A DNA stretch of 64,000 nt from Patescibacteria group bacterium (GCA_041650515.1 JBAZLA010000001.1:221866-285865); one strand, 5' to 3'. Shown: positions 14,131 to 53,952, counted from the first letter of the stretch. Notes: generated by a model from the letters alone, not told the origin. Made by a program: numbers and translations.

Positions 14131-14152
14131 GGGCGAGTCGGCTGAGGTTGCT

Positions 14153-15736: not shown

Positions 15737-15775
15737 TTATCGTTATAGGCTACCTTTAGGAGATATAATAACCCG

Positions 15776-16048: not shown

Positions 16049-16049
16049 T

Positions 16050-16613
16050 ATGTATCGTGAACGTCTTTATTTGCCCGACCATTTACCGAATGAAAAAGTC
16101 GAGTTCGTCCTGCGGCGACATCTTTTTGTTGCTTTTGGTGAAGGATTATTATTTATCGTTTTATTTGCTATTCCAGTTGGTTTCTATTATTTTTTTAAGA
16201 TTTTATTTCCCCATTTATTGGCTAGTGAGGTTGTCTATACTTTATTGTTGCTGTCCGTTAGTGTTTATTACCTTTATATTTTACTTTTTGCCTATACTAG
16301 TTTTATTGATTATTGGCTAGATATCTGGGTAGTGACCAATGAACGAATTATCAGTATCGAGCAGAGAGGATTATTCGCCCGTAAGTTTTCGGAGCAGCAA
16401 CTTTTCTTACTACAGGACGTTTCCTCTGAGGTTCATGGTATTTTGGCAACCCTTTTTCACTTTGGGATATTGTTGCCCAGTCAGCTGGCTCAAAACAGAA
16501 CGCCATATTTAAACAGGTGCCGCGGGCTGACCAGATTGCTGTACGAATCATGCAACTCGCTGAGGCCAGCCGAAAAAATCATCCTGGAGAGGGGTAGCTT
16601 TAATTATCTTTAA
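16050..16613 (+). CDS. bPH_2 (YdbS/YdbT-like bacterial PH domain) membrane protein; probable frameshift near 16465-16470
   Basis: 2 TM then PH-like …NERIISIEQRGLFARKFSEQQLFLLQDVSSEVHGILATLF. Skipping one G in CACTTTGGG gives DIVAQSAGSKQNAIFKQVPRADQIAVRIMQLAEASRKNHPGEG* (stop 16595-16597), a much better family-like C-terminus than the track ORF tail. Confidence 0.55.
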   Translation: MYRERLYLPDHLPNEKVEFVLRRHLFVAFGEGLLFIVLFAIPVGFYYFFKILFPHLLASEVVYTLLLLSVSVYYLYILLFAYTSFIDYWLDIWVVTNERIISIEQRGLFARKFSEQQLFLLQDVSSEVHGILATLFHFGILLPSQLAQNRTPYLNRCRGLTRLLYESCNSLRPAEKIILERGSFNYL

Positions 16614-16663
16614 ATAACATCAGATTTTAAAATAGAGCAGACAGCTCTTTTTTTAGAAATAAA

Positions 16664-16704
16664 AAAACCCGCACATCCGGTAGGACCGAACGGCGGGGGT
16701 TTTA
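16664..16704. terminator. Weak bidirectional hairpin (CCCGC…GCGGG) with A-run before and T-run after, between convergent genes
   Basis: AAAAAAACCCGCACATCCGGTAGGACCGAACGGCGGGGGTTTTAG lies between the + gene ending 16613 and the - gene ending 16735. Confidence 0.35.
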
Positions 16705-16734
16705 GTTTCCAGAGAGCGAAGAGGTCGAGCCGGA

Positions 16735-17769: not shown

Positions 17770-17783
17770 GGTGGCTGGCCTCC

Positions 17784-19040: not shown

Positions 19041-19269
19041 TCATTCGTCACGTCTAGCTCGGCGGTGCGCGATTCTTCAATATCTTTCTCCTTTCTCTCT
19101 GAAATGTTGTTGTAAAGAGCAAAACAAAACAACCCTCCAGTCCTCCTTTGGGGTTGTTTATTCCCAATAAGCTAAAACTAACTCTCTCTCTCGTTTGTCA
19201 AGCTAAGTCACTCGGCTGGAGTTTTAGCTAAAAAACCGGTAGAATATACAAGAAAGCAAGTTTCTCCCC

Positions 19270-19366
19270 GTCATTGCGAGCCCCTCGGTTCACTCGGGAT
19301 AAACTCCGCGAAGCAATCTCCCTAATTATTCAGGGGATTGCTCCGTCGCTCCGCTCCTCGCAATGG
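19270..19366 (+). promoter_or_regulatory. About 95-nt imperfect long hairpin in the flippase 5' leader whose 3' arm contains the ATG
   Basis: CATTGCGAG (19272-19280) pairs with CTCGCAATG (19357-19365, ATG at 19363). Inner helices are GCGAAGCAATC/GATTGC… and CCC/GGG. Confidence 0.35.
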
Positions 19367-20811
19367 AAAGAAAACAATATTTTATGTCATTAACTAGTAA
19401 AGTCGCTCAGAATACTATTATCCAAATAATTGGTAAGGTGGTTTCCACGGCCTTGGGTTTGGCGACAGTTGGTTTGATGACCCGCTACCTGGGTCGTGAG
19501 GGCTTTGGTTGGTACACGACGGTGACGGCTTTTTTACAATTTTTTGGCATTTTAGTGGATATGGGTTTATCCATGGTGATTATTCAGCTGATCTCCGAGA
19601 CGCCAGAAGAGACTGAGAAAATTACCAAAAATATTTTTACTTTTAGATTAATTTCGGCAATCATTTTTCTAGGTCTGGCGCCATTTGTGGTTTTGTTTTT
19701 TCCCTACCCCGCGATTATCAAATGGGGCGTGGCACTGACGGCATTGTCTTTTTTGTTTATTTCGCTTAATCAGATTATCATTAGCTTATTCCAAAAATAT
19801 CTGCGGATGGATAAGGTGGCCATCGCCGAGATTATCGGCCGGTTAGTTTTGTTGGCCGGGGTGATCTTGGTAGTTTATTTTGGTTGGGGGTTTTTGCCAG
19901 TAATGGGCATGATCGTTTTAGGTAGTTTAGTTAATTTGGTGGCTAACCTGTTTTTTGTCCGTCGTTATGTGACAATCGGTTTAGCTTTTGATTTTGCAGT
20001 TTGGAAAAAGGTTTGGCTGCGCACCTGGCCGATTGCCCTATCAATCGCTTTTAATTTGGTTTATTTTAAAGCTGATACAATTATCCTTTCGCTTTATTGG
20101 CCACAGACTGAGGTGGGTATTTACGGGGCGACCTATAAAGTTTTGGAAGTATTGACCCAGCTAACTTATCTATTTATGGGCTTAATTCTGCCGATTTATT
20201 CAGCCTATTGGGCTAGTCAGAATTTTGATAAATTTAAACAGGCGATCCAAAAAGCTTTTGATTTTACCTCAATAATCACCTGGCCGATGGTGGTCGGTGG
20301 TTTTTTCTTGGCCGGGCCGATTATGATTTTTGTCGCCGGGGCCGACTTTAGTGCCGCGGCGCCGATTCTCCAAATTTTAATTTTTGCCACTGGAACAATA
20401 TTTATAACTAATGTTTTTACTTACGCCGTAGTGGCTGCTAACTTGCAAAAAAAGATGCTTTGGGGTTTTATTCTGGCCGCGATCTTCGGCCTGGCCGGCT
20501 ATCTTCTCCTTATTCCCACTTATTCCTACTTTGGCGCTGCCGGGATGACCGTGGCGGTTGAGTGCTTTATTACTCTGTTTGCTTTTTTGGTGGTTTATCG
20601 GACACTTAAGTTTGTACCTTCTTTTATAATTTTTGGTAAGGCTTTATTAGCTAGTTTGGTGATGGGAGTAGCCGTGGCCTTCTTGGTCGTTTATCAGATC
20701 AACTTATTAGTAGTCATTGTCTTAGGCGCTTTAATTTATACTTTAATATTATTTCTCTTGGGCGGCTACCAAAAGGAAACCGTACGAGAGATTTTAAATT
20801 GGCGAGGGTAG
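19363..20811 (+). CDS. Oligosaccharide flippase (Wzx-like, MOP/PST family)
   Basis: 482 aa with about 14 TM helices; typical polysaccharide-biosynthesis-protein N-terminus (VAQNTIIQIIGKVVSTALGL); adjacent to an O-antigen ligase-like gene. Confidence 0.75.
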   Translation: MERKQYFMSLTSKVAQNTIIQIIGKVVSTALGLATVGLMTRYLGREGFGWYTTVTAFLQFFGILVDMGLSMVIIQLISETPEETEKITKNIFTFRLISAIIFLGLAPFVVLFFPYPAIIKWGVALTALSFLFISLNQIIISLFQKYLRMDKVAIAEIIGRLVLLAGVILVVYFGWGFLPVMGMIVLGSLVNLVANLFFVRRYVTIGLAFDFAVWKKVWLRTWPIALSIAFNLVYFKADTIILSLYWPQTEVGIYGATYKVLEVLTQLTYLFMGLILPIYSAYWASQNFDKFKQAIQKAFDFTSIITWPMVVGGFFLAGPIMIFVAGADFSAAAPILQILIFATGTIFITNVFTYAVVAANLQKKMLWGFILAAIFGLAGYLLLIPTYSYFGAAGMTVAVECFITLFAFLVVYRTLKFVPSFIIFGKALLASLVMGVAVAFLVVYQINLLVVIVLGALIYTLILFLLGGYQKETVREILNWRG

Positions 20812-27428: not shown

Positions 27429-28268
27429 ATGCTGACGAAAAAGAATAAGACTATAGGTATTGTTATGCTGCTGCTAGCTATTCTGGTTGGTTGTTGGTGG
27501 TTACTGAATAAATCAAGTTTTAGTTTAGATGGCGGTAGCCAACGCCTTGAGCGGCCGATCCTAGTTGCTTCTGGTCATCCAGAATGGTCGCCGATTATGT
27601 GGCAGAGGGGTGATGAAATAATTGGTGTTGGCCCAGAGTTGGTAACTAAAATTTTTGATCAACTTGGTATTGATGTCAGTTCTGAGTATGCTGGTACCTG
27701 GGACGTGGTGCAAAAAAAAGCCAAGAGCGGCGAGATTGATGTTTTAGTAGCGGCTTACAAAACTAGTGAACGAGAAACCTACATGGATTATTCTGACGCT
27801 TACACTGTTGATCCGGTAGCGCTGTTTGTTAAAAAGGGCCAGAGTTTTACTTATAATAATTGGGATGATCTAGTTGGTAGGAATGGTGTGGCCACCATTG
27901 GTGATAGCTATGGTCAGCAATTTGATGATTTTCTTAAAACTAGTCTAACAGTTGAGCGGGTGGTAACTGCTCAAGAAGCATTTGAGAAAGTACTGGCTGG
28001 CCAAGCGGATTATTTCGTTTATGCTCTCTATTCTGGACAAAAGGCGATTGCCGATAATAATTATAGTGAACAAATTGAGATATTACCAAAATATGTTGCT
28101 CAGGAAAATTTTTATATCACGATTTCTAAAAAATCACCTTATAATAAATATCTGCCGCAGGTTAATGAATTGATTAAGCAATATCAAAAAGACGGGACAA
28201 TTATAAAGTTAATTAAGAAATATCAAGATCAGATTCTTTCTGGTTCAATTGATCTTGGCAATAATTAA
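27429..28268 (+). CDS. Substrate-binding protein (SBP family 3-like; amino-acid/polar-solute binding), orphan
   Basis: 279 aa; N-terminal TM/signal then a periplasmic-binding-protein type 2 fold pattern; no permease or ATPase adjacent. Confidence 0.55.
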   Translation: MLTKKNKTIGIVMLLLAILVGCWWLLNKSSFSLDGGSQRLERPILVASGHPEWSPIMWQRGDEIIGVGPELVTKIFDQLGIDVSSEYAGTWDVVQKKAKSGEIDVLVAAYKTSERETYMDYSDAYTVDPVALFVKKGQSFTYNNWDDLVGRNGVATIGDSYGQQFDDFLKTSLTVERVVTAQEAFEKVLAGQADYFVYALYSGQKAIADNNYSEQIEILPKYVAQENFYITISKKSPYNKYLPQVNELIKQYQKDGTIIKLIKKYQDQILSGSIDLGNN

Positions 28269-35743: not shown

Positions 35744-35875
35744 CTTAGCTATCAACGGCGATTGGGGATTAAGTAGTTAAATTTTGGCTTATTTAAGCTA
35801 AAAAAGAGTTACATAAATAAACTGTTGATGATTATTCATTTTTTTAATCTTTTCTGTTATAATAAAAGCAAGTCT

Positions 35876-36742
35876 ATGCAAAAAGTACGCAAAGTTATTA
35901 TCCCCGCCGCTGGTTTGGGCACCCGTTTATTACCGGCCACTAAAGCGCAGCCTAAAGAAATGCTGCCAATTGTTGATAAGCCGATTATTCAGTATGTAGT
36001 AGAAGAGGCGGTGGCCGCGGGGATTGAAGATGTGATTATTGTGACCGGTAGTAATAAACGGGCGATTGAGGACCATTTCGATTATAATTACGAGCTACAA
36101 AACCAACTAAAAAAACAGGGCAAACACCGCGAGCGTCAGGAAATTAAGAAGATTGCTGATTTAGCCAATTTTATTTATATCCGTCAAAAGGGTCCTTATG
36201 GTAATGGGACGCCAGTGTTAAATTGTGCCAATTTAATTGGCGATGAGCCTTTTGCGGTTCTATGGGCGGATGATTTGATAGTCGGCCAAAAACCAAGACT
36301 GAAGCAGTTAATTGAAGTCTATGAAAGGTACGGTGACCCAGTCTTAACCGCGATTAAAACCGATACCGCCGGTACCAAAAAATATGGCATGATTGAAGGT
36401 TTAAAAATAGAAGAGAATATTTTGCAGGTAAAAAACATTATTGAAAAGCCAGGACCAGCGGCGGCGCCTTCTCTCTGGGCAGCGGTTGGAGGCTATATTC
36501 TAACGCCGGATATTTTTCCAATTTTAAGAAAGACCAAATTAGGCCGAGGCGGTGAGCTTTGGTTAGTGGATGCAATTTTTGCCCTGGCCAAACGACGTCC
36601 GATTTATGCTTGTTTAGTGGATGGCCAGTATTATGATGCTGGTTCGCCTTTAGGATTACTTAAAACCAACGTCGATTTTGCCTTGATGGATAAAAATATT
36701 AGCGAAGATTTCAAAAAATACCTAAAACAAATTATTAAATAG
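35876..36742 (+). CDS. galU: UTP--glucose-1-phosphate uridylyltransferase
   Basis: Start moved to MQKVRKVIIPAAGLGTRLLPATKAQPKEMLPIVDKP (ATG 35876); canonical GalU N-terminal motif. Confidence 0.9.
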   Translation: MQKVRKVIIPAAGLGTRLLPATKAQPKEMLPIVDKPIIQYVVEEAVAAGIEDVIIVTGSNKRAIEDHFDYNYELQNQLKKQGKHRERQEIKKIADLANFIYIRQKGPYGNGTPVLNCANLIGDEPFAVLWADDLIVGQKPRLKQLIEVYERYGDPVLTAIKTDTAGTKKYGMIEGLKIEENILQVKNIIEKPGPAAAPSLWAAVGGYILTPDIFPILRKTKLGRGGELWLVDAIFALAKRRPIYACLVDGQYYDAGSPLGLLKTNVDFALMDKNISEDFKKYLKQIIK

Positions 36743-36745
36743 TTT

Positions 36746-38143
36746 ATGTTTAAAAGCCAAACCCAAATCAAAATTTTGACCATTTTTTTACTTTTTGTTT
36801 TTTTGATTACAGCTGGTTTAGGTTGCAAAACCCCTTCTCAGGATGTTCAGCAGGCGACTCAGCCAGTCACTTTAAAATTTTGGCGGGTTTGGGATGACAA
36901 TGAAGATTTTAGTGAAATCATTGCTGCTTATCAGGCGGCTCACCCTTATGTCAATATTGAATATCGACGTTTTCGTTATGAAGAATATGAGCAGGCCCTT
37001 GTTGAAGCTTTAGCTGAAGATCGTGGTCCGGATATTTTTTCGATCAGTAACACTTGGGTCAACCGCTATTTAAGCAAGATTGCTCCGTTGCCCGATCAAA
37101 CTACTATGCCCTATATTAGTACGGTTAAACATCTGGGCATTCAGGAAGAGACAGTTGTTGAGATGAAGTCTAAAAAATCTATCACCCCTCGGGGTGTTAG
37201 AGAAAAGTTTGCTGATGTGGTCGGTCAGGATGTTATTTGGCAAGACCCAGAAACTAATCAGGAAAAAGTGTGGGGTCTACCTCTAAGTGTTGATACTTTA
37301 GCTCTATTTTATAATATTGATTTACTCAATAATGCTGGCATTCCTGAGCCGGCTCGGACCTGGGTTGAGTTTCAGGATCATGTCAAAAAAATCGTTAAAC
37401 AAGATAAAAAAGGTAATATTACTCAAGCTGGGGCGGCCTTAGGTACGGCTGATAATGTTGTGCGGAGTTTTGATATTTTATCATTGTTAATGATGCAAAA
37501 TGGCACTCAGATGAACGCTGGCAATTCGGTTATTTTTAATAGCATCCCCGACAGTTTGAAAGGCCGCGAGATGCCGCCGGGTGAGGAGGCTCTAATCTTC
37601 TATACTGATTTTGCTTACCCAGCTAAAGAAGTGTATACTTGGAATGAGGAAATGCCCAGTTCCCTTGATGCTTTTATCCAGGGTCAGGTGGCCTATTTTT
37701 TCGGCTACGCTTATCATTTAACCGATATCACGAATCGAGCGCCAAAGTTGAGGTTTAATTATAAGACCATGCCGCAGATTGAAGGGAACCCTGAGATTAA
37801 CTTTGCTAATTATTGGATAGAGACGGTTTCGAAAAAGAGTGCTAATACTAATATTGCTTGGGATTTTATTCAATTTGCTACTTCTGCCGAGCAAGTTAAA
37901 AGCTATCTGGATAAAACCGAGCGGCCGACAGCGCTCAAGGAATTAATCAGTACGCAGATTAATGATGAAGCGATGGCGCCGTTTGCCAGCCAATTATTAA
38001 CTGCCAAGAGCTGGTATCGCGGGCGAGATTATGCCACCGCTGAGAAGCTTTTTAAAGACATGATTACAGCGGTAGTTAAGGCTCAAATGACTGTACCCGA
38101 GGCGATTGATCTAGCCGCTTCGCGGATTCAGCAAACGATGTAA
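36746..38143 (+). CDS. Extracellular solute-binding lipoprotein (SBP family 1, sugar-type), orphan
   Basis: 465 aa; signal peptide with lipobox (GLGC); periplasmic binding fold pattern; no permease adjacent. Confidence 0.6.
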   Translation: MFKSQTQIKILTIFLLFVFLITAGLGCKTPSQDVQQATQPVTLKFWRVWDDNEDFSEIIAAYQAAHPYVNIEYRRFRYEEYEQALVEALAEDRGPDIFSISNTWVNRYLSKIAPLPDQTTMPYISTVKHLGIQEETVVEMKSKKSITPRGVREKFADVVGQDVIWQDPETNQEKVWGLPLSVDTLALFYNIDLLNNAGIPEPARTWVEFQDHVKKIVKQDKKGNITQAGAALGTADNVVRSFDILSLLMMQNGTQMNAGNSVIFNSIPDSLKGREMPPGEEALIFYTDFAYPAKEVYTWNEEMPSSLDAFIQGQVAYFFGYAYHLTDITNRAPKLRFNYKTMPQIEGNPEINFANYWIETVSKKSANTNIAWDFIQFATSAEQVKSYLDKTERPTALKELISTQINDEAMAPFASQLLTAKSWYRGRDYATAEKLFKDMITAVVKAQMTVPEAIDLAASRIQQTM

Positions 38144-38172: not shown

Positions 38173-38883
38173 ATGGTGGAAACTAAGATAATAAAAAGAT
38201 CGATCTGGCCCAGGCTGATTCTGGTGTTGTTGGTTGTTTTGGTAATTATTATTTTTAATTTTACCGTGGCTCGGGCTGGTTTTGATGGTTATACTTGTGA
38301 AAGTCAGTCGCAGCAGGCAACAATTTGTGTTGGTGGTTGCACCAGCGATTGTCTCAGTTGTTCTGAGACTTCGGATTGTTGTTTAGATGGTGGCAGCAGC
38401 TGTGATACTGGCAGTACCACTGATACTGGCAGTACCACTGATACTGGCAGTACCACTCCGCAAGCATTACCAAAGTGTCAGGCCGGTTGGTATTCTAAAC
38501 CAGTTGGTTTGTTCGCTGATGTTGATCCTAATTGTTACGCCTGTGGTGATTGTACTCTGTGTGATTTTTTGGCGGTGGCTAATGGTTTAGCTAAAATTAT
38601 TTTTTCGGTTTTTGGTGGTGTTGCTTTGGTGATGTTTCTATGGGGTGGTTTAAGCTTTATTTTGGCCGGGGGAGCGGCTGAGAAGATTACTAATGCCAAG
38701 AAGATTCTAATTAGTGCGGTTGTGGGTATTGTGATAATTTTAGCCGCTTGGGAAATAGTTCATTTGGTAATCATCGTTTTTTCTACTTCGCCAGAGCAAT
38801 TACATAAGGGTAATTTTGTCACTGAGTTATTTTCGAATAAAGAAGGTAAGGGTTTACCTTGGAACAATCCGACCTGTAAATAA
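38173..38883 (+). CDS. TrbC/VirB2-like (T4SS pilin-like) family protein, paralog 1, with Cys-rich and GSTTDT-repeat insert
   Basis: 236 aa; N-terminal TM; C-terminal block FGGVALVMFLWGGLSFILAGGAAEKITNAKKILISAVVGIVIILAAWEIV shared with the ten downstream genes. Confidence 0.7.
   Translation: MVETKIIKRSIWPRLILVLLVVLVIIIFNFTVARAGFDGYTCESQSQQATICVGGCTSDCLSCSETSDCCLDGGSSCDTGSTTDTGSTTDTGSTTPQALPKCQAGWYSKPVGLFADVDPNCYACGDCTLCDFLAVANGLAKIIFSVFGGVALVMFLWGGLSFILAGGAAEKITNAKKILISAVVGIVIILAAWEIVHLVIIVFSTSPEQLHKGNFVTELFSNKEGKGLPWNNPTCK
38404..38457. repeat. 18-bp in-frame tandem repeat x3 (GATACTGGCAGTACCACT; encodes GSTTDT)
   Basis: Three perfect copies head to tail inside paralog 1. Confidence 0.9.
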
Positions 38884-38886
38884 AGT

Positions 38887-39315
38887 ATGAATAAAGTCCA
38901 AAAAATCATTATTTTTAGTTTGTTAGTCTTTATTGGTCTAACTTTTCTGGTTAATCTAGCCGTGGCTTTTGAGCCATTAAAAAACCCCTTGAATATTGAG
39001 ATTAAGAGCCCCGCCCAGGTCTATGAGTTGATCGGTCGGGTATCTCAGGCGATTTTGGGTTTAGTTGGTTCAGCGGTTTTTGTGATGTTCATTTACGGTG
39101 GAATTACCTGGTTGCTATCTGGCGGTGCCGAAGAAAAGATCAAAAAGGCTCGAGGAACATTAGTTTGGTCGCTCTTTGGCTTATTAATTATATTCACTAG
39201 CTACGCCTTATTAAGTTTTACCATCCGTTATATTACTATTGCGACTGGCGTCAGCACCGAAGCTTTTAGTGACAGCGGTAGCGATCAACCAGGTCCGCCG
39301 GCTGGTGGGCAGTAA
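38887..39315 (+). CDS. TrbC/VirB2-like pilin-like family protein, paralog 2
   Basis: 142 aa; signal/TM; C-terminal VGSAVFVMFIYGGITWLLSGGAEEKIKKARGTLVWSLFGLLIIFTSYALLSF. Confidence 0.75.
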   Translation: MNKVQKIIIFSLLVFIGLTFLVNLAVAFEPLKNPLNIEIKSPAQVYELIGRVSQAILGLVGSAVFVMFIYGGITWLLSGGAEEKIKKARGTLVWSLFGLLIIFTSYALLSFTIRYITIATGVSTEAFSDSGSDQPGPPAGGQ

Positions 39316-39321
39316 TCTGTA

Positions 39322-39351
39322 TTGACAATTTGGGGTAAAAGATATTATAAT
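39322..39351 (+). promoter_or_regulatory. Sigma70-like promoter (TTGACA, 18-nt spacer, TATAAT) upstream of paralog 3
   Basis: Consensus hexamers at 39322-39327 and 39346-39351; followed by RBS AAAGGGGG. Confidence 0.45.
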
Positions 39352-39406
39352 ATAGAGGTATTAATTAGTTTATTAATTTAATCTCCACAAAGAAAGGGGG
39401 TGAAGT

Positions 39407-39766
39407 ATGAACAAAATTATTAAAGTATCGACCTTAGTTTTCCTTTTGGCCCTGTTAGTTGTCCCACATTTTGCTGGTGCCATCGACTTGGGCTTGGGTT
39501 ATGCCACGGCCACTGGTTTGACCAGTACGGATATTCGCGTAACCGTTTCTCGGATTATTAACGTCGCCCTAGGTCTTTTGGGTGTTATCGCAGTGGTGAT
39601 TATTTTAGTTGGCGGCTTCAAGTGGATGACGGCTGGTGGTAATGAAGAAAAAGTTACCGAAGCTAAAAAATTGATTGCGGCTGGTGTTATTGGTTTAGCA
39701 ATTATCTTAACTGCTTATGCCATCGCTGCCTTCGTGATCAACTCCTTGCTCAAGGCCGTACAATAG
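39407..39766 (+). CDS. TrbC/VirB2-like pilin-like family protein, paralog 3
   Basis: 119 aa; C-terminal LGVIAVVIILVGGFKWMTAGGNEEKVTEAKKLIAAGVIGLAIILTAYAIAAFV. Confidence 0.75.
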   Translation: MNKIIKVSTLVFLLALLVVPHFAGAIDLGLGYATATGLTSTDIRVTVSRIINVALGLLGVIAVVIILVGGFKWMTAGGNEEKVTEAKKLIAAGVIGLAIILTAYAIAAFVINSLLKAVQ

Positions 39767-39822
39767 TTAGTTTGAGTAATCATTGAAGTGTTTAATGCCT
39801 CAGCTGGGTAATTAAATTTTTG

Positions 39823-39937
39823 GGGGCCCAGCCCCTTTCTTACTCACGATGATCATAGTTTCGCCTAATAGGATAATTTGGCGCTAGCTGTAGGTAATAT
39901 TAACTACCCGTGGTTGAGAAAGGGGCGGGCCCCCCTA
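39823..39937. repeat. GC-rich ~30-bp imperfect inverted repeat with 55-bp spacer between pilin-like genes 3 and 4
   Basis: TTTTGGGGGCCCAGCCCCTTTCTTACTCACG … CGTGGTTGAGAAAGGGGCGGGCCCCCCTAAA; about 27 of 31 arm positions are complementary. Confidence 0.7.
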
Positions 39938-39948
39938 AATAAGCATTT

Positions 39949-40353
39949 ATGAATCGGAAAAATATTAATAAAGTGTTGTTTCTTGCGTTGGTTGGTATTT
40001 TGGTTTTGCCAGTGTTATGTCTAGCAGCGACTCAACCCGGTACGGCTGATTTTGGCTTAACATCAACAGCGAGCCAGGCTTATGGCACTAAGCCAGCGCA
40101 GACTGATCCGACGGTGATTACTGGCACCATCATTGGCGTGATTCTTTCTTCATTGGGTATTATTTTTATGATCCAGGTTATTTTGGCTGGCATCAAATGG
40201 CTGACCGCTCAAGGTAATGAAGAGAAAATCACTAGCGCTCGCAAGAGCTTGATTCATTCTATCATTGGTTTGGTTATTGTTCTGTCGGCCTATACTCTAG
40301 TCTACTTTGTGATGGGGCAGATACTTTTTCCAGCTATTGGTATCAAGAAATAA
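39949..40353 (+). CDS. TrbC/VirB2-like pilin-like family protein, paralog 4
   Basis: 134 aa; C-terminal LGIIFMIQVILAGIKWLTAQGNEEKITSARKSLIHSIIGLVIVLSAYTLVYFV. Confidence 0.75.
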   Translation: MNRKNINKVLFLALVGILVLPVLCLAATQPGTADFGLTSTASQAYGTKPAQTDPTVITGTIIGVILSSLGIIFMIQVILAGIKWLTAQGNEEKITSARKSLIHSIIGLVIVLSAYTLVYFVMGQILFPAIGIKK

Positions 40354-40366
40354 TTTTGTATAATAC

Positions 40367-40777
40367 ATGAAAGTTTTTTCGAACAAAATACTGATAATCA
40401 TAGTCACCTGGTTTCTTATAATTTTTGCTGTTCCAGCCGTGGCTACTGAGGTGCCGCCAACCTTATTAAATGCCCCCGAACAAGCCGGTGGTCTAGCTGT
40501 TAAGGCCGGTTATCCCGAGAAACCGCGGGCACCAGAAGAAGTGGTCGGCCGGCTGATTTCTTATGCGATGGGCGCTTTGGGCGTTGTTTTCTTTGTCCTG
40601 ATGGTTTATGGTGGTTGGCTGTGGCTAACAGCTAGCGGCAATGAAGAACAAATTACTAAAGCCAAGAAACTAATTATCGAAGCAGTTATTGGTCTAGCGA
40701 TTATTTTTGCCGCTTATGCCATCACCTACTTTGTGGTTAGTAAAGCTCTAAGTAGCATTACGCCCGAGACAGAGTAG
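40367..40777 (+). CDS. TrbC/VirB2-like pilin-like family protein, paralog 5
   Basis: 136 aa; C-terminal LGVVFFVLMVYGGWLWLTASGNEEQITKAKKLIIEAVIGLAIIFAAYAITYFV. Confidence 0.75.
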   Translation: MKVFSNKILIIIVTWFLIIFAVPAVATEVPPTLLNAPEQAGGLAVKAGYPEKPRAPEEVVGRLISYAMGALGVVFFVLMVYGGWLWLTASGNEEQITKAKKLIIEAVIGLAIIFAAYAITYFVVSKALSSITPETE

Positions 40778-40784
40778 TAATATT

Positions 40785-41243
40785 GTGATATTGATTATGG
40801 CTAATATTTTTAAAAAAATCTATTTTCTAGCTCTTGTATTTTTATTACTCCTACCCTTGGTGGGCGTTTTGGCCGGTGATAAGGATGAGTGGAAACCCGG
40901 TAAGCTAACCAATATTACCAGTGAGCTGGAGCGAACTGGTGGTGAACAAGGTATGGGTGTGGATGTTGAAAATTTGAGCAAAGACGAGGCGCTGTATAAA
41001 ATTATTGGTAAGTGGGTTAATTGGGTAACTTCTTTTTTGGGTGTAGTGTTTACTTTATTAATAATCTATGGCGGCTGGTTGTGGTTTTCGGCTAATGGTA
41101 ATGAAGAAAAAATTACCCAAGCTAAAAAAATTATTATTAATTCAGTGATTGCCCTGGCCATAGTGCTGTTTGCTTGGATAATTACATCGACCGTATTGTA
41201 TTATACAGCTAGTGCTTCAGTGACTTCCGTAAGTGGACAATAA
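40785..41243 (+). CDS. TrbC/VirB2-like pilin-like family protein, paralog 6
   Basis: 152 aa; C-terminal LGVVFTLLIIYGGWLWFSANGNEEKITQAKKIIINSVIALAIVLFAWIIT. Confidence 0.75.
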   Translation: MILIMANIFKKIYFLALVFLLLLPLVGVLAGDKDEWKPGKLTNITSELERTGGEQGMGVDVENLSKDEALYKIIGKWVNWVTSFLGVVFTLLIIYGGWLWFSANGNEEKITQAKKIIINSVIALAIVLFAWIITSTVLYYTASASVTSVSGQ

Positions 41244-41248
41244 TTTAT

Positions 41249-41734
41249 ATGATATATGTAACACAATATGGTTTTTTGAAAATTATCTCAATACTATTTT
41301 TAGTATTGTTTTTGTTTAATAGTTTGTTAACGCCGGCTCTAGCTGTTGAGAACGCTTTGTTGGATATTGAGAATATGGCAAAAACTGGTGCCCAAGTGGC
41401 GGGGGAAGGTGGTTATTATACTGGCGATGACCCGGCGGTTGGTGCTAAAGTTTGGGTAGAGAGTACTAGTTATATTATTAGAATAATTATAACCTTTGTT
41501 GGTGTTTTATTTTTTGTTTTGATGATCTATGGCGGGGTTTTATGGATGACGGCTGGTGGCAATGAAGAACAGGTTAAAAAAGCCAGAAGTATATTAATCC
41601 AAGCATTGGTTGGTATAGTGATTGTTTTTGCTGCCTATGCCGTTACTGTCCTAGTATTTTATGTCCTTGGCAGTGAAACCTCTGGTGTTTATAATGTTGG
41701 TGAGATGCCGACAGATACACCTGAAGTTGATTAG
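41249..41734 (+). CDS. TrbC/VirB2-like pilin-like family protein, paralog 7
   Basis: 161 aa; C-terminal VGVLFFVLMIYGGVLWMTAGGNEEQVKKARSILIQALVGIVIVFAAYAVTVLVF. Confidence 0.75.
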   Translation: MIYVTQYGFLKIISILFLVLFLFNSLLTPALAVENALLDIENMAKTGAQVAGEGGYYTGDDPAVGAKVWVESTSYIIRIIITFVGVLFFVLMIYGGVLWMTAGGNEEQVKKARSILIQALVGIVIVFAAYAVTVLVFYVLGSETSGVYNVGEMPTDTPEVD

Positions 41735-41800
41735 CGGTTGGGACCTAATATTCTGGTAAATTATTAGTTTAAAAATAGTAAGAGGGTTTTTAGCTAGTTT

Positions 41801-42244
41801 ATGTCTATAAAATACAGTTATAAAATTTGTCTTCTGACCTTGTTAGCTATGATGTTAATTTCGCCATTGATTGGCTGTCTAGCGGGGGAAGAGGTTGACC
41901 TTAATGCAACGGTAGTTGATAGTTTACGTAATTCCGCTGGTGTTAAGGGTGCTGGTTATAACACGGAGGCAACAGAGGAAGGAACGAATGGAAATATTAT
42001 AGTTATCTACCTTGGTAGAATAATCAAATACGCCTTGACTTTTTTGGGTGTAATTTTCTTTCTTTTTATGATTTATGGCGGTATCCGCTGGATGGTTGCT
42101 CAGGGTAATGAGGAACAGGTGACTGAGGCAAAAAAAATGATTAAAAGTAGTGTTATTGGTTTGGTTATTATTCTATCTGCCGGAATTGTCGCCTGGGTTG
42201 TTTTTGAATATTTATTTAAGGCGACCACTGGTCAATCCAGTTAA
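41801..42244 (+). CDS. TrbC/VirB2-like pilin-like family protein, paralog 8
   Basis: 147 aa; C-terminal LGVIFFLFMIYGGIRWMVAQGNEEQVTEAKKMIKSSVIGLVIILSAGIVAWVVF. Confidence 0.75.
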   Translation: MSIKYSYKICLLTLLAMMLISPLIGCLAGEEVDLNATVVDSLRNSAGVKGAGYNTEATEEGTNGNIIVIYLGRIIKYALTFLGVIFFLFMIYGGIRWMVAQGNEEQVTEAKKMIKSSVIGLVIILSAGIVAWVVFEYLFKATTGQSS

Positions 42245-42258
42245 GTTTATCTAAATTT

Positions 42259-42735
42259 GTGTTTATGTTGATCGAGACAAAAAAAATTAAATTTTTATTC
42301 TCATTTATTTTGTTGGTATTTTGTTTATTACCGTCATTATCTGTGATGGCTGTAGAGCAACCTCATCAGACTGCTACAGACTGGCATCGTGATTTTATAA
42401 CTGCTAGTGGTTTTGCTATACCCGGTACGACCGAGGGTGCTAATCTAGAAAGTGGAATCACCAATATTATCGCGCTTATTTTGTCAGTTGTTTTATCGAC
42501 CTTGGGCGCAATCTTTTTGATTCTAGTTCTTTATGCTGGTATTCTGTGGATGACCGCTGGTGGCAACCAAGAGCAGGTGACTAAGGCTAAGAAGCTGTTA
42601 ATTAATGCTACCATTGGTTTAACGATTGTTTTGTCGGCTTATGCTATTACCTATATTGTGATGGCCTGGCTGGGTAATGCCATTGGTTATGATACTGGCG
42701 ACGGCTTTACGGCTCCGCCAGCCGGCTCTCTATAA
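42259..42735 (+). CDS. TrbC/VirB2-like pilin-like family protein, paralog 9
   Basis: 158 aa; C-terminal LGAIFLILVLYAGILWMTAGGNQEQVTKAKKLLINATIGLTIVLSAYAITYIVM. Confidence 0.75.
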   Translation: MFMLIETKKIKFLFSFILLVFCLLPSLSVMAVEQPHQTATDWHRDFITASGFAIPGTTEGANLESGITNIIALILSVVLSTLGAIFLILVLYAGILWMTAGGNQEQVTKAKKLLINATIGLTIVLSAYAITYIVMAWLGNAIGYDTGDGFTAPPAGSL

Positions 42736-42765
42736 ATCAAGTTAACTCATTGTCTGATATAAAGT

Positions 42766-43194
42766 ATGTATAAACGAATCACTATTTTTATCCTGGGGTT
42801 GGTTTTATTATCTAATATGCTGGGCGTTGGATTGGCGGCTGCTGCTGATGGTGAAGACCCGACAATTATGGGCACGCTGGGCCCGATTGCCACCCAGGCG
42901 GGCTATAGCGAGGATACGCAAGAGATGAGTGTGTTTATCATTGTGGCTAATGTTTTGTCTATTCTTTTTACTACTCTGGGCGTCATCTTTATGCTTATTG
43001 TGCTCTATGCTGGTTTTCGCTGGATGACGGCTGGTGGTAATGAAGAAAAGGTTACCGAAGCTAAAAAACTACTGATTAACGCGACAATCGGCTTAGCCAT
43101 TGTTTTATTGGCTCTGAGTATTACCTATTTTGTTGGCGGCGCCCTAGGGCCAGCGATTGGCGAAGAGTATAATCCCGCTCAAGGTTTCTTTTAA
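42766..43194 (+). CDS. TrbC/VirB2-like pilin-like family protein, paralog 10
   Basis: 142 aa; C-terminal LGVIFMLIVLYAGFRWMTAGGNEEKVTEAKKLLINATIGLAIVLLALSITYFV. Confidence 0.75.
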   Translation: MYKRITIFILGLVLLSNMLGVGLAAAADGEDPTIMGTLGPIATQAGYSEDTQEMSVFIIVANVLSILFTTLGVIFMLIVLYAGFRWMTAGGNEEKVTEAKKLLINATIGLAIVLLALSITYFVGGALGPAIGEEYNPAQGFF

Positions 43195-43211
43195 ACTTAA
43201 ATATTTGCTTT

Positions 43212-43661
43212 ATGGCTAAAAAGATTTTCTTTTCGATAATTTTGTTGTTTACTCTATCGCTATTAGTAGCTCCGGCTTTGGTTTTTGCTGAAAAAGATGA
43301 CCTTGGCGTACCCTGGGAAGAAGGTGAAGCCACGGTTTGGGATCGAATGAGATTTGGCTTACAGCCGACTGAGAAGATCGCCTATGGTATTGAAGGCGAG
43401 GTCAGAATACCGCTACTGCTAGATACCGTAATGTATTTGGTGCAGGTATTTTTGACTACCCTGGGTGTTATTTTTGTGATTATTGTGGTCTATGCTGGTT
43501 TTCGTTGGATGACCGCTGGCGGCAACCAGGAGCAAGTGACTGAGGCTCGTAAACTATTGATCAACGCCACGATTGGTCTGGCAATTGTCATTATGTCTTT
43601 ATCTATTACCTATTTTATCGTTTACGCCCTATTGTATAGTTCTAGAGGCACCAAGAATTAA
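43212..43661 (+). CDS. TrbC/VirB2-like pilin-like family protein, paralog 11
   Basis: 149 aa; C-terminal LGVIFVIIVVYAGFRWMTAGGNQEQVTEARKLLINATIGLAIVIMSLSITYFIV. Confidence 0.75.
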   Translation: MAKKIFFSIILLFTLSLLVAPALVFAEKDDLGVPWEEGEATVWDRMRFGLQPTEKIAYGIEGEVRIPLLLDTVMYLVQVFLTTLGVIFVIIVVYAGFRWMTAGGNQEQVTEARKLLINATIGLAIVIMSLSITYFIVYALLYSSRGTKN

Positions 43662-44675: not shown

Positions 44676-45443
44676 TTATTTAGCTTGTTGTAGTAAGTAG
44701 TTAATCGCCTCGCGCCAGCTAGCCAAAGTCTGGAAACCGGTCACTTTTTCGTTGTTGACAAAGAAGGTGGGTGTGCCGGCTGCGCCAGCCTGGTAAGCAG
44801 CGTTCAGGTCTTGGCTAATTTCGTTTTTGTATTTTTGACTATCGAGACATTGGTTAAAACGGCCGGTATCCAGTTGGGTCGCGGCGGCTAAACTTTTAAT
44901 TAGGTCGGTAGTTAGTTGTTCTTGGTTATCAAACATTTTGTCATGGAGGGACCAGAAAAAGACATCGCCCTGTTCCTTGGCGCATTGGCCGGCCAGGGCG
45001 GCGGTAATAGACATCTCGCTGACAATTGGGAAATCACGGAAAATAATCCGAATATCGCGAGGATAGAGTAAGTAGAGTTGCTTAATGATTGGATAGGATT
45101 GTTTACAGACTGGGCAGGTAAAATCAGCAAATTCCACAATAGTGATGGTGGCGGTTGTATTACCAAGCATCGGGTCGTCGTCAGTAGCAACATTAATCAA
45201 ACCTGGCTGGTTGGTTGACGACTGGCCAGTTAGTTGCTCCCAGTTGATTTGGCCTTGTTTATATTTGGAGAGGAGGTCGAGCGTCTGAAAAGCAACTGCC
45301 AGGCCAAAGGCCAAAACCAGCATTAAAACTATCAACAGCGGTATTTTCCACCACTTGGTTGGTTTTTTAGGTCTTAGTTGATAGGCTGGTGGTGTTGTTT
45401 GATCCAGACTAGGCATATAGGGTATTATAGCGGAAAAAGTCAT
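44676..45443 (-). CDS. DsbA-family thiol:disulfide oxidoreductase (membrane-anchored)
   Basis: 255 aa; N-terminal TM; thioredoxin-fold CxxC (FADFTCPVCKQSYP). Confidence 0.75.
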   Translation of the reverse strand: MTFSAIIPYMPSLDQTTPPAYQLRPKKPTKWWKIPLLIVLMLVLAFGLAVAFQTLDLLSKYKQGQINWEQLTGQSSTNQPGLINVATDDDPMLGNTTATITIVEFADFTCPVCKQSYPIIKQLYLLYPRDIRIIFRDFPIVSEMSITAALAGQCAKEQGDVFFWSLHDKMFDNQEQLTTDLIKSLAAATQLDTGRFNQCLDSQKYKNEISQDLNAAYQAGAAGTPTFFVNNEKVTGFQTLASWREAINYLLQQAK

Positions 45444-45790: not shown

Positions 45791-47797
45791 GTGCCAGAAA
45801 ACAGCACTCCGACAGGTGAAATAGATAACGCTAAAAAGACAATCAAGAAAAAAGATTTTTTTTCTCTTTTTAAACGTCATCGACAATCAACTGAGGAGGA
45901 AAAACTAATGGAAAAACAAAAGCAAAAATCCGATCTTGATCGGCAGTTAGTTTTTGGTTTAACGAATCAGGCCAAAAAATCGGTTCCGACCTGGCAACAG
46001 ATTAAATATCTAAGTAAGGTTTTGAGTTTTAAAGAGAAGAAGGCTATTAAGATTTCAGTTATTATCATTATCTTCGCCGCTGTTTTCTTGGCCGTCAGTT
46101 TTTACTTCTTTTCTCTTAAACTGGTGCCGGCTTTTGGTGGGGAATATTCTGAAGGACTAGTCGGTAGCCCGAGATACATTAATCCAATTCTAGCCCAGAC
46201 CAATGATGTAGATATGGACCTGGCGGCAGTGATTTTTTCTGGTTTGATGAGACGTAACCAGAGTCAAGAGCTGCAGCCCGACTTGGTGGGCAGCTATCAG
46301 ATTTCTGAGGATCAGAAAGAATATACGTTTATTTTAAAAGAGGGGATCAAGTGGCACGATGGTCAGCCAGTGACCGTTGAGGATATTCTGTTTACCTTTG
46401 ATTTAATTAAGGACCAAGAAGTCGCCTCTCCTTTAGCGGTCAGTTTTAAAGGGGTTAGTATTGAGCAAATCGATGAATTAAGTTTTAAGTTTGTTCTATC
46501 CGAACCATTTACACCTTTTCTTAGTACTTTGACCTTTGGTATTTTACCTAAACATCTTTGGCAAGAGATCGATCCGGCCAACCTTCGTTTGGCTGATCTA
46601 AATCTTAAACCGATTGGTTGTGGTCCGTTCAAATTTTATTCTTTAAAAAAAGATAGTCTTGGTGAGATTAAGTCAATTGTTTTAAACCGTTATGATGATT
46701 ATCATTTTGGTCGAGCTTATCTAGATCAAATCACTTTTAAGTTTTATCCCGATCTTGGCTCGATTGAGCAAGCTTTGGTTAATAAAAACGTTCAAGGTGT
46801 AAGCTATTTGCCAAAAGAAGCTAAAGATAAAATTTTTGATAAGGGGTTGGATTCGGCTAAGGGTTATCATCTTTATCCTCTAAATTTTCCACAATATACC
46901 GCTGTTTTCTTTAATCAAAAAAATAGTGAAGTTCTGCAAGACAAAAATATTCGCCAGGCTCTCGCTCAAGCGACCGACCGATCGCGATTAGTTTGGCAAA
47001 CCCTTAGTGGTGACGCCGTGATTATTGATGGGCCGATTTTGCCGGGCTTTATTGGTTACTATCCCGAGATTAAAAAATATGACTATTTGCCGGAAGCGGC
47101 GGCGGCCTTATTAGATCAAGCTAAGTGGCAAGCGATTAGTCCCAATGATTTTATTACTTGGCAGCGGCAGCAGGAGAAGGCTAGTCTACCCGCCGACAGC
47201 GAGTACATTGATCAGAGCGATGAGGAGCGGTTAGCTGCGTTGGGTGGCCAGGAGTATTTTAGAAAAAAAGGTGACAAAATTTTAGAAATTACTCTGACCC
47301 TAGTTGATCGGGCCGAGAATGTCGAGGTGGCTAAAGTTATCCAAGAAAATTGGCAGATGATCGGCATACGAACAATTTTAAATATTGTACCAGCCGATAA
47401 TATTCGTAAAGATGTTATTAAACCACGTAATTATCAGGCTTTGATCTATGGTGAGATTGTTGGTGCGGATCCAGATCCTTATCCCTTTTGGCATTCTTCA
47501 CAGAATGTTGACCCAGGATTGAATTTAGCTATTTTTACTGATCGTCGGGTGGATAATTACATCGAAGCGGCTCGTCAGACCAGTGATACTAGTAAGCAGG
47601 AAGAAAATTACAAAAAATTTCAAGACATTTTAGCTGAGGAACTGCCAGCAATTTTTCTCTATAGCCCGACTTATAACTATGTTTTAAGTGAGCAGGTTAG
47701 AGGATTTAGCGTAGAGAATATTTCTAAACCGTCGGATAGGTTGGTTGATTTGACTCAGCGCTATATCAAAACTAAGCGGGTTTGGTCATCGAACTAA
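45791..47797 (+). CDS. ABC-type substrate-binding protein, family 5 (peptide/nickel-like), N-terminally membrane-anchored, orphan
   Basis: 668 aa; Lys-rich N-terminus plus TM; long SBP-5-like domain; no permease or ATPase adjacent. Confidence 0.65.
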   Translation: MPENSTPTGEIDNAKKTIKKKDFFSLFKRHRQSTEEEKLMEKQKQKSDLDRQLVFGLTNQAKKSVPTWQQIKYLSKVLSFKEKKAIKISVIIIIFAAVFLAVSFYFFSLKLVPAFGGEYSEGLVGSPRYINPILAQTNDVDMDLAAVIFSGLMRRNQSQELQPDLVGSYQISEDQKEYTFILKEGIKWHDGQPVTVEDILFTFDLIKDQEVASPLAVSFKGVSIEQIDELSFKFVLSEPFTPFLSTLTFGILPKHLWQEIDPANLRLADLNLKPIGCGPFKFYSLKKDSLGEIKSIVLNRYDDYHFGRAYLDQITFKFYPDLGSIEQALVNKNVQGVSYLPKEAKDKIFDKGLDSAKGYHLYPLNFPQYTAVFFNQKNSEVLQDKNIRQALAQATDRSRLVWQTLSGDAVIIDGPILPGFIGYYPEIKKYDYLPEAAAALLDQAKWQAISPNDFITWQRQQEKASLPADSEYIDQSDEERLAALGGQEYFRKKGDKILEITLTLVDRAENVEVAKVIQENWQMIGIRTILNIVPADNIRKDVIKPRNYQALIYGEIVGADPDPYPFWHSSQNVDPGLNLAIFTDRRVDNYIEAARQTSDTSKQEENYKKFQDILAEELPAIFLYSPTYNYVLSEQVRGFSVENISKPSDRLVDLTQRYIKTKRVWSSN

Positions 47798-50012: not shown

Positions 50013-50783
50013 ATGGAAATAACTATTTTAGGTTCAGGAAGCTATCAGCCAGAGCTTAGTCGGCACTCGGCTGGCTATTTGGTTCGAGCAGGCAAAAAAA
50101 ATCTAGTTTTTGATTTTGGTCGGGGAGCGGTTGACCAGCTGATGAAAGTTGGTGTTAATTATTATGATATCGACGCTATTTTTATCACTCATTTGCATTC
50201 TGACCATTGCTCTGACTTGTTAGCTGTTTTGCATATTCTACTTATTGAGCCAGCTTTCTTGTCTTTTAGAAAAAAGAAACTAGTTGTTTATGGTCCGGTA
50301 GGGTTTAATAAGGTAATGGCTAAGTTAATGGTGATATTTAATTTAACTAAGTATCGGCCACAGTATAAGATTGTTTTTAAAGAGATAAAAGATGGTCAGA
50401 GTGCTAGGATCGGCAGTTGCCAGATTAGGGGTTATAAGGTTAAACACTCGCGGACCTGGAATTGTTTAGCTTATCGGATTAGCGCCAATAAAAAAGTGTT
50501 GACCTATTCTGGTGATTCGGAGCAATGCCCGGGTTTATTAAAGGCTGCCCGAGGAGCGGATTTGGCAATTTTAGAAGCTAGCTGGCCAGAGAAATTTATT
50601 GCGGGCGGTCATATGAGCGCTAGCCAAGCAGCGGCTTTGGCTCAAAAAGCTGGAGTCAAGAGATTAGTTTTAAGCCACATGCATTCTTTTTATTTTAGAA
50701 AATATAATCCGCTGGCTGAAGCAAAAAAGAATTATCGTGATCAAGTAGTGGTTGCTAGAGATTTGATGGTAATTGATGTTTGA
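50013..50783 (+). CDS. MBL-fold metallo-hydrolase (RNase Z/ElaC-like), paralog A
   Basis: 256 aa; HxHxDH motif (ITHLHSDHC); paralogous to 53176-53952. Confidence 0.7.
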   Translation: MEITILGSGSYQPELSRHSAGYLVRAGKKNLVFDFGRGAVDQLMKVGVNYYDIDAIFITHLHSDHCSDLLAVLHILLIEPAFLSFRKKKLVVYGPVGFNKVMAKLMVIFNLTKYRPQYKIVFKEIKDGQSARIGSCQIRGYKVKHSRTWNCLAYRISANKKVLTYSGDSEQCPGLLKAARGADLAILEASWPEKFIAGGHMSASQAAALAQKAGVKRLVLSHMHSFYFRKYNPLAEAKKNYRDQVVVARDLMVIDV

Positions 50784-53175: not shown

Positions 53176-53952
53176 ATGAAGATTACTCTTTTAGGTACGG
53201 GGGCGCCTTATCCAGATCCACAAAGAAATGCGCCTGGGTTTTTATTAGAACACGATGAAGTGCCTTATTTAATCGACTGTGGTGGTGGGGTGTGCCACCA
53301 GCTAGCTAAGATTGGTTGCCCGGGAGCCAAATTAGATAATATTTTTATTAGTCACATTCACATTGATCACTGTGTCGAGTTTCCAGCTTTGGTTTTTAGT
53401 TCGTATTTAACTGGTAAAGAAGGCAGCTTCCATCTATTTGGTCCGGCCGGAGTCAAACATTGGGTCGAGAGCACTTTCAACACTACTTATGACTTCGCGC
53501 CGCAGATGATGCGCGATTTACGAAATAAGGAGATTAGCGTTATTACTCAAGAAGTTGAATCAGGTAAAATTTTTGAACAAGATGGTTTGGTAGTTGAGGC
53601 CGAACCAGTGGAACATGGTTTTCCCACTTTAGCTTATAAATTTACTGCCAATGGTAAAAGCGTAGTTTTTAGCGGTGATACCCAGCCCTGCGCTGGTTTG
53701 ACTAAAATTGCCCAAGGCGCGGATTTACTAATTATTGAGTGTTCTTTCCCAGAAGACATGGGCATTAAGCCAAATCATTTAATCCCATCGCAGGTTGGCC
53801 GGATTGCTCAAGCGGCTAAGGCTAAAAAAGTTTTGTTAGTTCATCTTTTTCCTTTTTGCCACGGCAAAGAAGAAGCGATATTAGCGGAAATTAAAAAACA
53901 TTATTCTGGACCAGTCGAGATTGGACAGGATTTGCAAGTGATGGAAGTTTAA
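53176..53952 (+). CDS. MBL-fold metallo-hydrolase (RNase Z/ElaC-like), paralog B
   Basis: 258 aa; ISHIHIDHC motif; collinear similarity to 50013-50783. Confidence 0.7.
   Translation: MKITLLGTGAPYPDPQRNAPGFLLEHDEVPYLIDCGGGVCHQLAKIGCPGAKLDNIFISHIHIDHCVEFPALVFSSYLTGKEGSFHLFGPAGVKHWVESTFNTTYDFAPQMMRDLRNKEISVITQEVESGKIFEQDGLVVEAEPVEHGFPTLAYKFTANGKSVVFSGDTQPCAGLTKIAQGADLLIIECSFPEDMGIKPNHLIPSQVGRIAQAAKAKKVLLVHLFPFCHGKEEAILAEIKKHYSGPVEIGQDLQVMEV

Follow-up and report, generated by a model that had tools for sequence, protein, structure and literature searches.

What do eleven tandem pilin-like genes build in a Patescibacteria group bacterium whose surrounding DNA holds no secretion machinery? The question is raised by a stretch of 64,000 nt (GCA_041650515.1 JBAZLA010000001.1:221866-285865; hereafter the window), in which positions 38173-43661 of the plus strand carry these genes. 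The original prediction, made from the sequence alone, described them as a locally amplified and diversifying family of TrbC/VirB2-type pilin-like proteins and as the most system-like unexplained block in the window. Here we report that the block belongs to the VirB2-like type IV secretion system (T4SS) pilin arrays known from Patescibacteria, family PF18895, and we argue that it probably encodes a heteromeric set of pilin subunits to be assembled by a T4SS located elsewhere in the genome.

The array encodes eleven PF18895 pilins

The block holds eleven same-strand open reading frames (ORFs) of 119-236 aa, the same ones that had been predicted, and the gaps between them run from 3 nt, as first given, to 182 nt instead of 180 (Table 1). 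All eleven products matched the Pfam model PF18895 (T4SS_pilin) at 30.2-50.5 bits, against a gathering cutoff of 26.6 bits, and the matches span most of the 71-position model, which puts family membership far past chance. The TrbC half of the predicted assignment fared differently: when the eleven copies were searched with PF04956 (TrbC, cutoff 27.9 bits), copy 3 gave the single match, which is sub-threshold (18.4 bits, E 0.0026). NCBIfam searches returned sub-threshold matches to a 'pilin-like conjugal transfer protein' of a Mycoplasma integrative and conjugative element (ICE).

MAFFT alignment of the eleven copies recovered the anticipated C-terminal module, with the consensus LGVIF..YGG..WMTAGGNEEKVT.AKK.LI.A.IGL.I, in which the columns G, G, G, E, A and I are invariant and W is nearly so. 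Hydropathy analysis gave three hydrophobic segments per protein, an N-terminal leader and two helices, and A-x-A-type sites at which the signal peptides may be cleaved follow the leaders. AlphaFold2 modelled copy 3 as a leader helix (residues 3-24) and a hairpin (40-75 and 80-118), with a predicted local distance difference test (pLDDT) score above 90 there and of 81 overall; both analyses agree with the proposed layout of a signal or transmembrane segment (TM), a divergent middle and a two-helix module. Identity among the paralogs averaged 31% over the whole protein (18-48%), 40% in the module and 14.5% in the ectodomain preceding it. The ectodomains, which are 25-130 aa long in the array, thus diverge faster than the module, and it is in this sense alone that the N-terminal halves, previously termed 'hypervariable', deserve the name. 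Copies 9-11 are the closest to each other, with modules 57-67% identical.

Copy 3 corresponds to NCBI MFA5076044.1 (WC480_01355), labelled 'hypothetical protein' and encoded on a 287-kb contig, and one ENA contig as well as Logan contigs carry the same array DNA. All relatives are metagenome-assembled genomes (MAGs) of Patescibacteria, which, together with the NCBI source name, supports the link to this group, for which the candidate phyla radiation is another name, that had been proposed. Among the close homologues of copy 3, about one in four carries PF04956 TrbC matches, and many are named 'pilin' by NCBI. An exhaustive hidden Markov model (HMM) search collected 77,949 representative clusters at E <= 1e-3, indicating that the PF18895-type family is very large. 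Zero matches were obtained when copy 3 was compared by tblastn with 72,556 plasmids, and PDB sequences, searched by profile at E <= 10, likewise gave none. Assignment to the PilD-processed type IV pilins was rejected, since a class III leader (G↓F-T-L-I-E-type motif) is present in 0/11 N-termini.

For comparison with classical pilins, an Agrobacterium tumefaciens VirB2 sequence served solely as bait; it retrieved annotated virB2/trbC genes that are flanked by virB1 and virB3 on MPF_T conjugative plasmids, and seven of these genes were aligned for hhalign. The window family and plasmid VirB2 aligned over 61 columns (pairwise E 3.7e-4) at a probability of only 36%, and hydrophobic helices can inflate such scores; the features that fall in register are the mature N-terminus, helix 1 with its 'G..WM' end, the loop and helix 2. 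This profile alignment would fit a distant homology of the window family to classical VirB2. Both share a leader, whose cleavage is predicted for the window family, two hydrophobic helices and a short loop, but the window family differs from VirB2/TrbC (A. tumefaciens VirB2, PF04956) in a loop longer by 8 residues, in the AGGNEEK motif and in eleven paralogs instead of one. No virB1, virB3 or virB4 is adjacent in the window, and the window host is presumed to be monoderm, whereas VirB2/TrbC systems are diderm.

Colinear orthologues point to an ordered set of distinct subunits

Related loci were collected by a scan with one genome per species, which yielded 80 loci from Falkow-, Magasanik-, Uhr-, Kerfeld-, Komeili- and Buchananbacteria-type MAGs; Falkow-, Uhr- and Magasanikbacteria belong to class ABY1 according to PMC12102498 Table S1. 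With a local HMM of the module, arrays of at least five genes were detected in 45 of the 80, the largest having 12 genes (L010, L083) and 13 genes (L047). Reciprocal best matches to the window array were colinear, with 10 of the 11 copies matched in L010 and 8 in L009 in the same order, and positions 1, 2 and 3 kept both orthology and order in many more distant loci. Colinear orthology, together with the 18-48% identity of the paralogs, indicates an old, ordered set of distinct subunits and not a recent local amplification, as judged from these comparisons. The claim of a locally amplified, diversifying family was therefore abandoned, given the mean paralog identity, the lack of recombination tracts and the colinear orthologous arrays elsewhere.

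Recombination or gene conversion among the copies was considered and rejected, as module DNA is merely 60-72% identical between copies and long shared tracts are absent. Silent cassettes of the pilE/pilS kind were likewise rejected, all eleven copies being complete with leaders. Between independent assemblies the array is identical apart from one 18-nt repeat in copy 1.

Copy 3 is a candidate major subunit

Copy 3 is the shortest product of the array and nearly lacks an ectodomain, and its gene lies between the array's two largest gaps. Its identity to orthologues is 68-76%, on a par with the upstream GalU (74%) and the neighbouring solute-binding protein (SBP; 63-64%) and above the 33-54% of the other ten copies, and a reciprocal-best orthologue was found in 43 of the 45 other array loci. 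The gap before copy 3 contains a full sigma-70 consensus promoter (Table 1), which is repeated ahead of copy-3 orthologues with 12/12 matching positions in L009, L028, L059 and L069 and with 11/12 in L010, L057 and L075. Copy 3 also has the sole strong Shine-Dalgarno (SD) sequence among the eleven array genes.

The spacer that follows copy 3 folds with a minimum free energy of -72.1 kcal/mol (z -5.4), a stability equalled by 0/200 shuffles; in an alternative fold, a local terminator-like hairpin (39822-39836) precedes a T-rich run. Downstream of copy-3 orthologues, 28 of 29 foldable spacers are unusually stable, with a median z of -5.6 versus -2.4 in 90 ordinary same-strand controls (Mann-Whitney p = 6e-8). 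Equivalents of the window structure were seen in 27 other genomes, and zero Rfam families matched the flanks of copy 3 at E <= 1. It is possible that this spacer is an attenuator or an mRNA-stabilising element. With these features copy 3 looks like the major subunit of the array, a candidate whose expression we infer from the signals around its gene.

Copy 1 belongs to a Cys-rich subfamily

The original prediction had singled out paralog 1 for a Cys-rich, GSTTDT-repeat insert, and both features were recovered. Copy 1 contains 14 Cys, a Cys-rich ectodomain and a C-terminal tail, and a 4-Cys motif (CYACGDCTLCDF) stands immediately before TM1. Reciprocal-best orthologues at position 1 (27 loci including the window) share the pattern C-x-x-C-G-[DN]-C-x-[LIV]-C-D-[FI] before helix 1 and form a subfamily of their own, with Cys-rich extensions N- or C-terminal to the module. 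The 18-nt repeat that encodes DTGSTT numbers 3.1 units in the window versus 2.1 in the ENA assembly, the sole difference across 20.4 kb, and either true length variation or an artefact of assembly could explain it. A DsbA-like thiol-disulfide oxidoreductase is encoded beyond the array on the opposite strand, and a homologue about 1 kb downstream of the array occurs in three loci only; from this position and the Cys content of copy 1, it is possible that the enzyme serves as its accessory.

The module is fused to adhesins and repeated in polyproteins

In about 22 related loci we found a conserved adjacent gene pair encoding proteins of about 700 aa and 2,700-3,460 aa, each beginning with a leader and a single PF18895 module, N-terminal to the adhesin-type domains Big_5, TIG and Laminin_G_3. 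The pair occurs in Magasanikbacteria-type genomes including L017, L031, L048, L068 and L081 (for example L048:7633-9828 and 9851-20224). The exhaustive HMM search also returned polyproteins in which a single signal peptide is followed by 6-17 ectodomain-TM-loop-TM units without internal leaders, such as P0122 (552 aa), P0127 (1147 aa) and P0128 (1775 aa, 17 matched stretches). The predicted topology, with the mature N-terminus outside, the loop inside (positive charges precede helix 2) and the C-terminus outside, fits both the fusions and the polyproteins. By Rosetta-stone logic, adhesin fusions and multi-module polyproteins point to surface display and to paralogs standing side by side in one assembly.

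Genomic neighbourhood of the array

Upstream of the array, on the same strand, lie a galU-like gene and a gene for a probable sugar-binding lipoprotein, the SBP (Table 1). The galU-like product scored 325.2 bits against NCBIfam TIGR01099 galU, just under the cutoff of 326.8, and the nearest solved structures of the SBP are sugar/maltose ATP-binding cassette (ABC) binding proteins. An SBP orthologue stands directly upstream of the array and on the same strand in 31 of the 39 array loci whose upstream sequence reaches 1.6 kb or more, often at a gap of -4 to +50 nt, and the linkage is kept even at SBP identity down to 44%; a galU orthologue is found just upstream of the SBP in 31/46 array loci. 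No ABC permease or ATPase (BPD_transp, ABC_tran) was detected beside the SBP in the annotated 30 kb around it. For three SBP genes of the window, of family 3 (27429-28268), family 1 (36746-38143) and family 5 (45791-47797), the annotated 84 kb contain neither a permease nor an ATPase of the ABC type.

Other recurrent neighbours in the relatives are GT2 (14 loci), DUF2079 immediately downstream of the array (9 loci), a flippase and lectin-domain genes. The GT2 gene is small and situated within about 5 kb of the array in 14 related genomes, and DUF2079 comes right after the array at L057:14109-16097 and at eight other loci. The GT2, DUF2079 and galU context hints at extracytoplasmic glycosylation. 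A cluster at 5915-12572 of the window encodes large polytopic membrane proteins, among them two (545-579 aa) without a Pfam match, a GT87/MptA_B-like protein and DUF2079.

Pfam annotation, both precomputed and newly run, covered the window and about 10 kb to either side (~84 kb of the contig, a few ORFs being without a Pfam match) and detected no member of the VirB4, VirB6, VirD4 or relaxase families, in agreement with the earlier statement that no T4SS component lies within the 64 kb; the annotated content consists of housekeeping, transport and envelope-glycan genes. In the 80 related loci, all ORFs of 450-1,100 aa were screened for Walker-A motifs, and the P-loop candidates for VirB4 proved to be FtsK, Mfd, UvrA, PilB-type T2SSE and DnaA. 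Three single-pilin loci (L023, L039, L065) were examined as T4SS sites and rejected, their neighbours being polysaccharide, lectin and housekeeping genes. PilB-type T2SSE ATPase genes, of the kind found in type IV pilus or type II secretion systems, lie 1-7 kb downstream of the array in 2/46 loci (L024:11609-13321; L030:17069-20089), and that of L030 is an apparent tandem double of 1,006 aa.

The genes dnaN and dnaA, then rpmH-rnpA-yidD, were located at L003:15468-18273, about 6-7 kb to the left of window position 1. Because dnaA and dnaN are just outside the window, the array lies about 45 kb from the probable replication origin. There are no T4SS genes beside dnaA here; many Patescibacteria have them there. 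Between 16000 and 19000 the window has a GC content of 0.52-0.53 versus about 0.40 elsewhere, ORFs overlap on both strands and one gene caller places a thiolase-like gene on the minus strand; this segment may have been acquired horizontally. A 'variable island' at 16-19 kb, suggested by differing gene calls, was dismissed because the DNA is identical in the other assembly. Two proteins with the metallo-beta-lactamase (MBL) fold (50013-50783 and 53176-53952) have precomputed matches to PF23023 (Anti-Pycsar Apyc1) and are probably generic MBL hydrolases.

Table 1. Positions of the pilin genes and associated features in the window
Feature	Position	Strand	Remarks
galU-like UTP--glucose-1-phosphate uridylyltransferase	35825..36742	+	Pfam NTP_transferase; gene caller's start 35876
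Family-1 sugar-type SBP, probable lipoprotein (..AGLGC..)	36746..38143	+	Pfam SBP_bac_1, SBP_bac_8; stops 29 nt before copy 1
Pilin copy 1	38173..38883	+	236 aa; PF18895 40.4 bits
Perfect 18-nt tandem repeat x3.1	38403..38457	+	Tandem Repeats Finder (TRF); encodes DTGSTT, copy-1 ectodomain
Pilin copy 2	38887..39315	+	142 aa; divergent position-2 subfamily; PF18895 38.2 bits; orthologues in many loci
Sigma-70 consensus promoter TTGACA-18-TATAAT	39322..39351	+	12/12 match, region's best; 55 nt before copy-3 start codon
Pilin copy 3	39407..39766	+	119 aa; PF18895 40 bits
Structured 182-nt spacer 3' of copy 3	39767..39948	+	Long stem ~39822-39846 with ~39915-39937
Pilin copy 4	39949..40353	+	134 aa; PF18895 40 bits
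Pilin copy 5	40367..40777	+	136 aa; PF18895 37.9 bits; exact protein on ENA/Logan contigs
Pilin copy 6	40785..41243	+	152 aa from GTG; gene caller: ATG 40797, 148 aa; PF18895 50.5 bits
Pilin copy 7	41249..41734	+	161 aa; PF18895 30.2 bits
Pilin copy 8	41801..42244	+	147 aa; PF18895 37.3 bits
Pilin copy 9	42259..42735	+	158 aa from GTG; gene caller: 42265, 156 aa; PF18895 30.5 bits
Pilin copy 10	42766..43194	+	142 aa; PF18895 39.4 bits
Pilin copy 11	43212..43661	+	149 aa; PF18895 32 bits
DsbA-like thiol-disulfide oxidoreductase	44676..45443	-	Pfam Thioredoxin_4, DSBA

Known pilin arrays and related systems

Arrays of this kind are already published, and the array itself is largely ordinary. In 3,035 Patescibacteria genomes, surveyed by Quinonero-Coronel et al. 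2025 (PMC12102498) with profiles that include PF18895 and PF04956, 441 VirB2 arrays were found, spread over 383 assemblies and comprising 2-11 pilin genes each, with a within-array identity of 25% on average and 54% at most; the MAG from which the window is derived is not among the genomes in their supplement. In the same survey VirB4 was present in 2,417 genomes (80%), pilin genes were near virB4 in 1,135 of 1,948 assemblies and unlinked in the other 813 (42%), and arrays were most abundant in Microgenomatia and Saccharimonadia. In Ca. Southlakia epibionticum a series of six predicted pilins is encoded inside the T4SS cluster, and epibiotic growth requires this series (Wang et al. 2023, PMC10633639); a review of that series treats a pilus as a possibility, as yet unobserved (PMC12857230). 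The designation 'unexplained block' was therefore given up, since these three papers describe arrays of 2-11 VirB2-like pilins, often away from virB4.

The window array shares with the published Patescibacteria arrays the family PF18895, the phylum, the tandem same-strand layout and the low identity (31% here versus 25%), and its eleven copies stand at the upper end of the published range. It differs in that the window clade is ABY1-like, whereas published arrays are commonest in the two classes named above, and the 12-13-gene arrays of its relatives exceed the published range. The Southlakia pilins lie within a T4SS cluster, whereas the window array and the 80 ABY1-type loci are away from any T4SS gene. 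The survey of Quinonero-Coronel et al. draws an analogy to the VirB2 paralogs of Bartonella and Anaplasma, whose loci likewise contain several divergent tandem paralogs, proposed to broaden interactions with host surfaces; those paralogs, however, are T4SS-linked and thought to serve immune evasion, whereas the window set appears ancient and ordered and is without a recombination signature. Type IV pilus operons and the chaperone-usher pap/fim operons likewise combine a short, conserved, strongly expressed subunit and a hairpin with less conserved subunits, some of them adhesive, but the likeness is one of organisation only, as the proteins are unrelated and none of the eleven leaders is of the PilD type.

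A heteromeric pilus and its alternatives

We consider it probable that the array encodes a heteromeric VirB2-type pilin set which an unlinked T4SS would assemble. Each product would be exported by Sec and lose its signal peptide, leaving in the membrane a two-helix hairpin with the N-terminal ectodomain and a short C-tail directed outward and the conserved W-M-T-A-G-G-N-E-E-K..AKK loop on the cytoplasmic side. As is the case for VirB2 and TraA, the hairpins would be drawn from this membrane pool by a VirB4-based T4SS encoded elsewhere and polymerised into a fibre at the surface, its inside lined by the conserved loop and the variable ectodomains exposed. The eleven genes would supply different subunits instead of interchangeable variants, copy 3 being the abundant core subunit from which most of the fibre is made; the Cys-rich copy 1 and others would be lower-abundance accessory or adhesive subunits. 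The array would be co-transcribed with galU and the sugar-binding lipoprotein, and its likely role would be host-cell contact or uptake from the host. An unlinked T4SS is plausible, because VirB4 is present in 17/18 ABY1 genomes sampled from PMC12102498 Table S1 and because 42% of the assemblies with both pilins and VirB4 have them unlinked.

SD-like motifs are scarce across the genome (4/36 other genes), so the SD sequence of copy 3 is only supportive. No VirB4-like ATPase was found within 10 kb of any of the 80 related loci, the polyproteins with 6-17 modules resemble polytopic membrane proteins and not extractable pilins, and the fold is generic: a helical hairpin matches more than 1000 unrelated structures, which leaves a fold search unable to discriminate. 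These last three points speak for the main rival, an envelope assembly independent of any T4SS, in which the modules would oligomerise laterally into a membrane platform working with the co-transcribed SBP, either capturing host-derived sugars or organising the cell surface, perhaps with UDP-glucose-dependent glycosylation. Such a platform would also account for the SBP and galU genes kept upstream of the array, often with a 4-nt overlap of SBP and array, and for the envelope-glycan neighbours. We nevertheless hold it to be unlikely, since the family model speaks for a pilin ancestry, as does the in-register alignment with VirB2, the same family lies inside the T4SS cluster of Saccharibacteria and is essential there, VirB4 is near-universal in the sampled ABY1 genomes, and the SBP comes without permease or ATPase, synteny alone being no proof of physical interaction. 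A bolder version, to which we give a small chance, takes the galU-SBP-pilin array of ABY1-type Patescibacteria as a self-contained, T4SS-independent surface apparatus, a membrane platform or a fibre, with copy 3 as its core and copy 1 translationally coupled to the SBP, presenting the SBP and, in relatives, the giant lectin/Ig adhesins to the host. It would resemble the archaeal 'bindosome', but with VirB2-like instead of type IV pilin-like subunits.

The modules might instead be generic anchors, each paralog displaying a different small ectodomain, such as an adhesin or receptor-binding peptide, with neither polymer nor machinery. The faster divergence of the ectodomains and the variety of cargo, from the 25-130-aa ectodomains and Cys-rich extensions to the 700-3,600-aa Ig/lectin adhesins of relatives, agree with this, but an anchor has no need for a conserved cytoplasmic loop motif with invariant W, G, G and E, conservation and, apparently, expression are highest in the minimal, ectodomain-poor copy 3, and gene order is fixed over long evolutionary distances, all of which makes the proposal rather improbable. 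Still more remote, and largely refuted, is antigenic or phase variation, in which the paralogs would recombine or be expressed singly to vary the surface. Many divergent paralogs with exposed variable parts, the repeat-number difference in copy 1 and the Bartonella/Anaplasma analogy would suit it; but silent cassettes are missing, module DNA is at most 72% identical, orthology is colinear and one-to-one so that the set is stable, the assemblies are identical save for the 18-nt repeat, and the annotated neighbourhood contains neither invertible elements nor a recombinase.

Implications for Patescibacteria pilins

The array by itself adds little, as such arrays have been catalogued and one is essential for epibiotic growth, but it offers a clean example for the question of what Patescibacteria pilins build. 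The searchable literature contained no mention of the galU-SBP link, the ordered orthology, the major-subunit signature or the adhesin and polyprotein fusions. Nor does it state the hypotheses proposed here, that the array is an ordered heteromeric set with copy 3 as its major subunit and that the Cys-motif subunit of position 1 and the sugar-binding lipoprotein may be constant partners of such arrays. Giant adhesins are anchored by the very module that is strung together in the polyproteins. As the candidate major subunit, copy 3 would be the obvious target for antibodies, tagging and cryo-electron tomography. If the pilus hypothesis is true, the array would provide pointers to how ultra-small bacteria attach to their hosts and feed from them.

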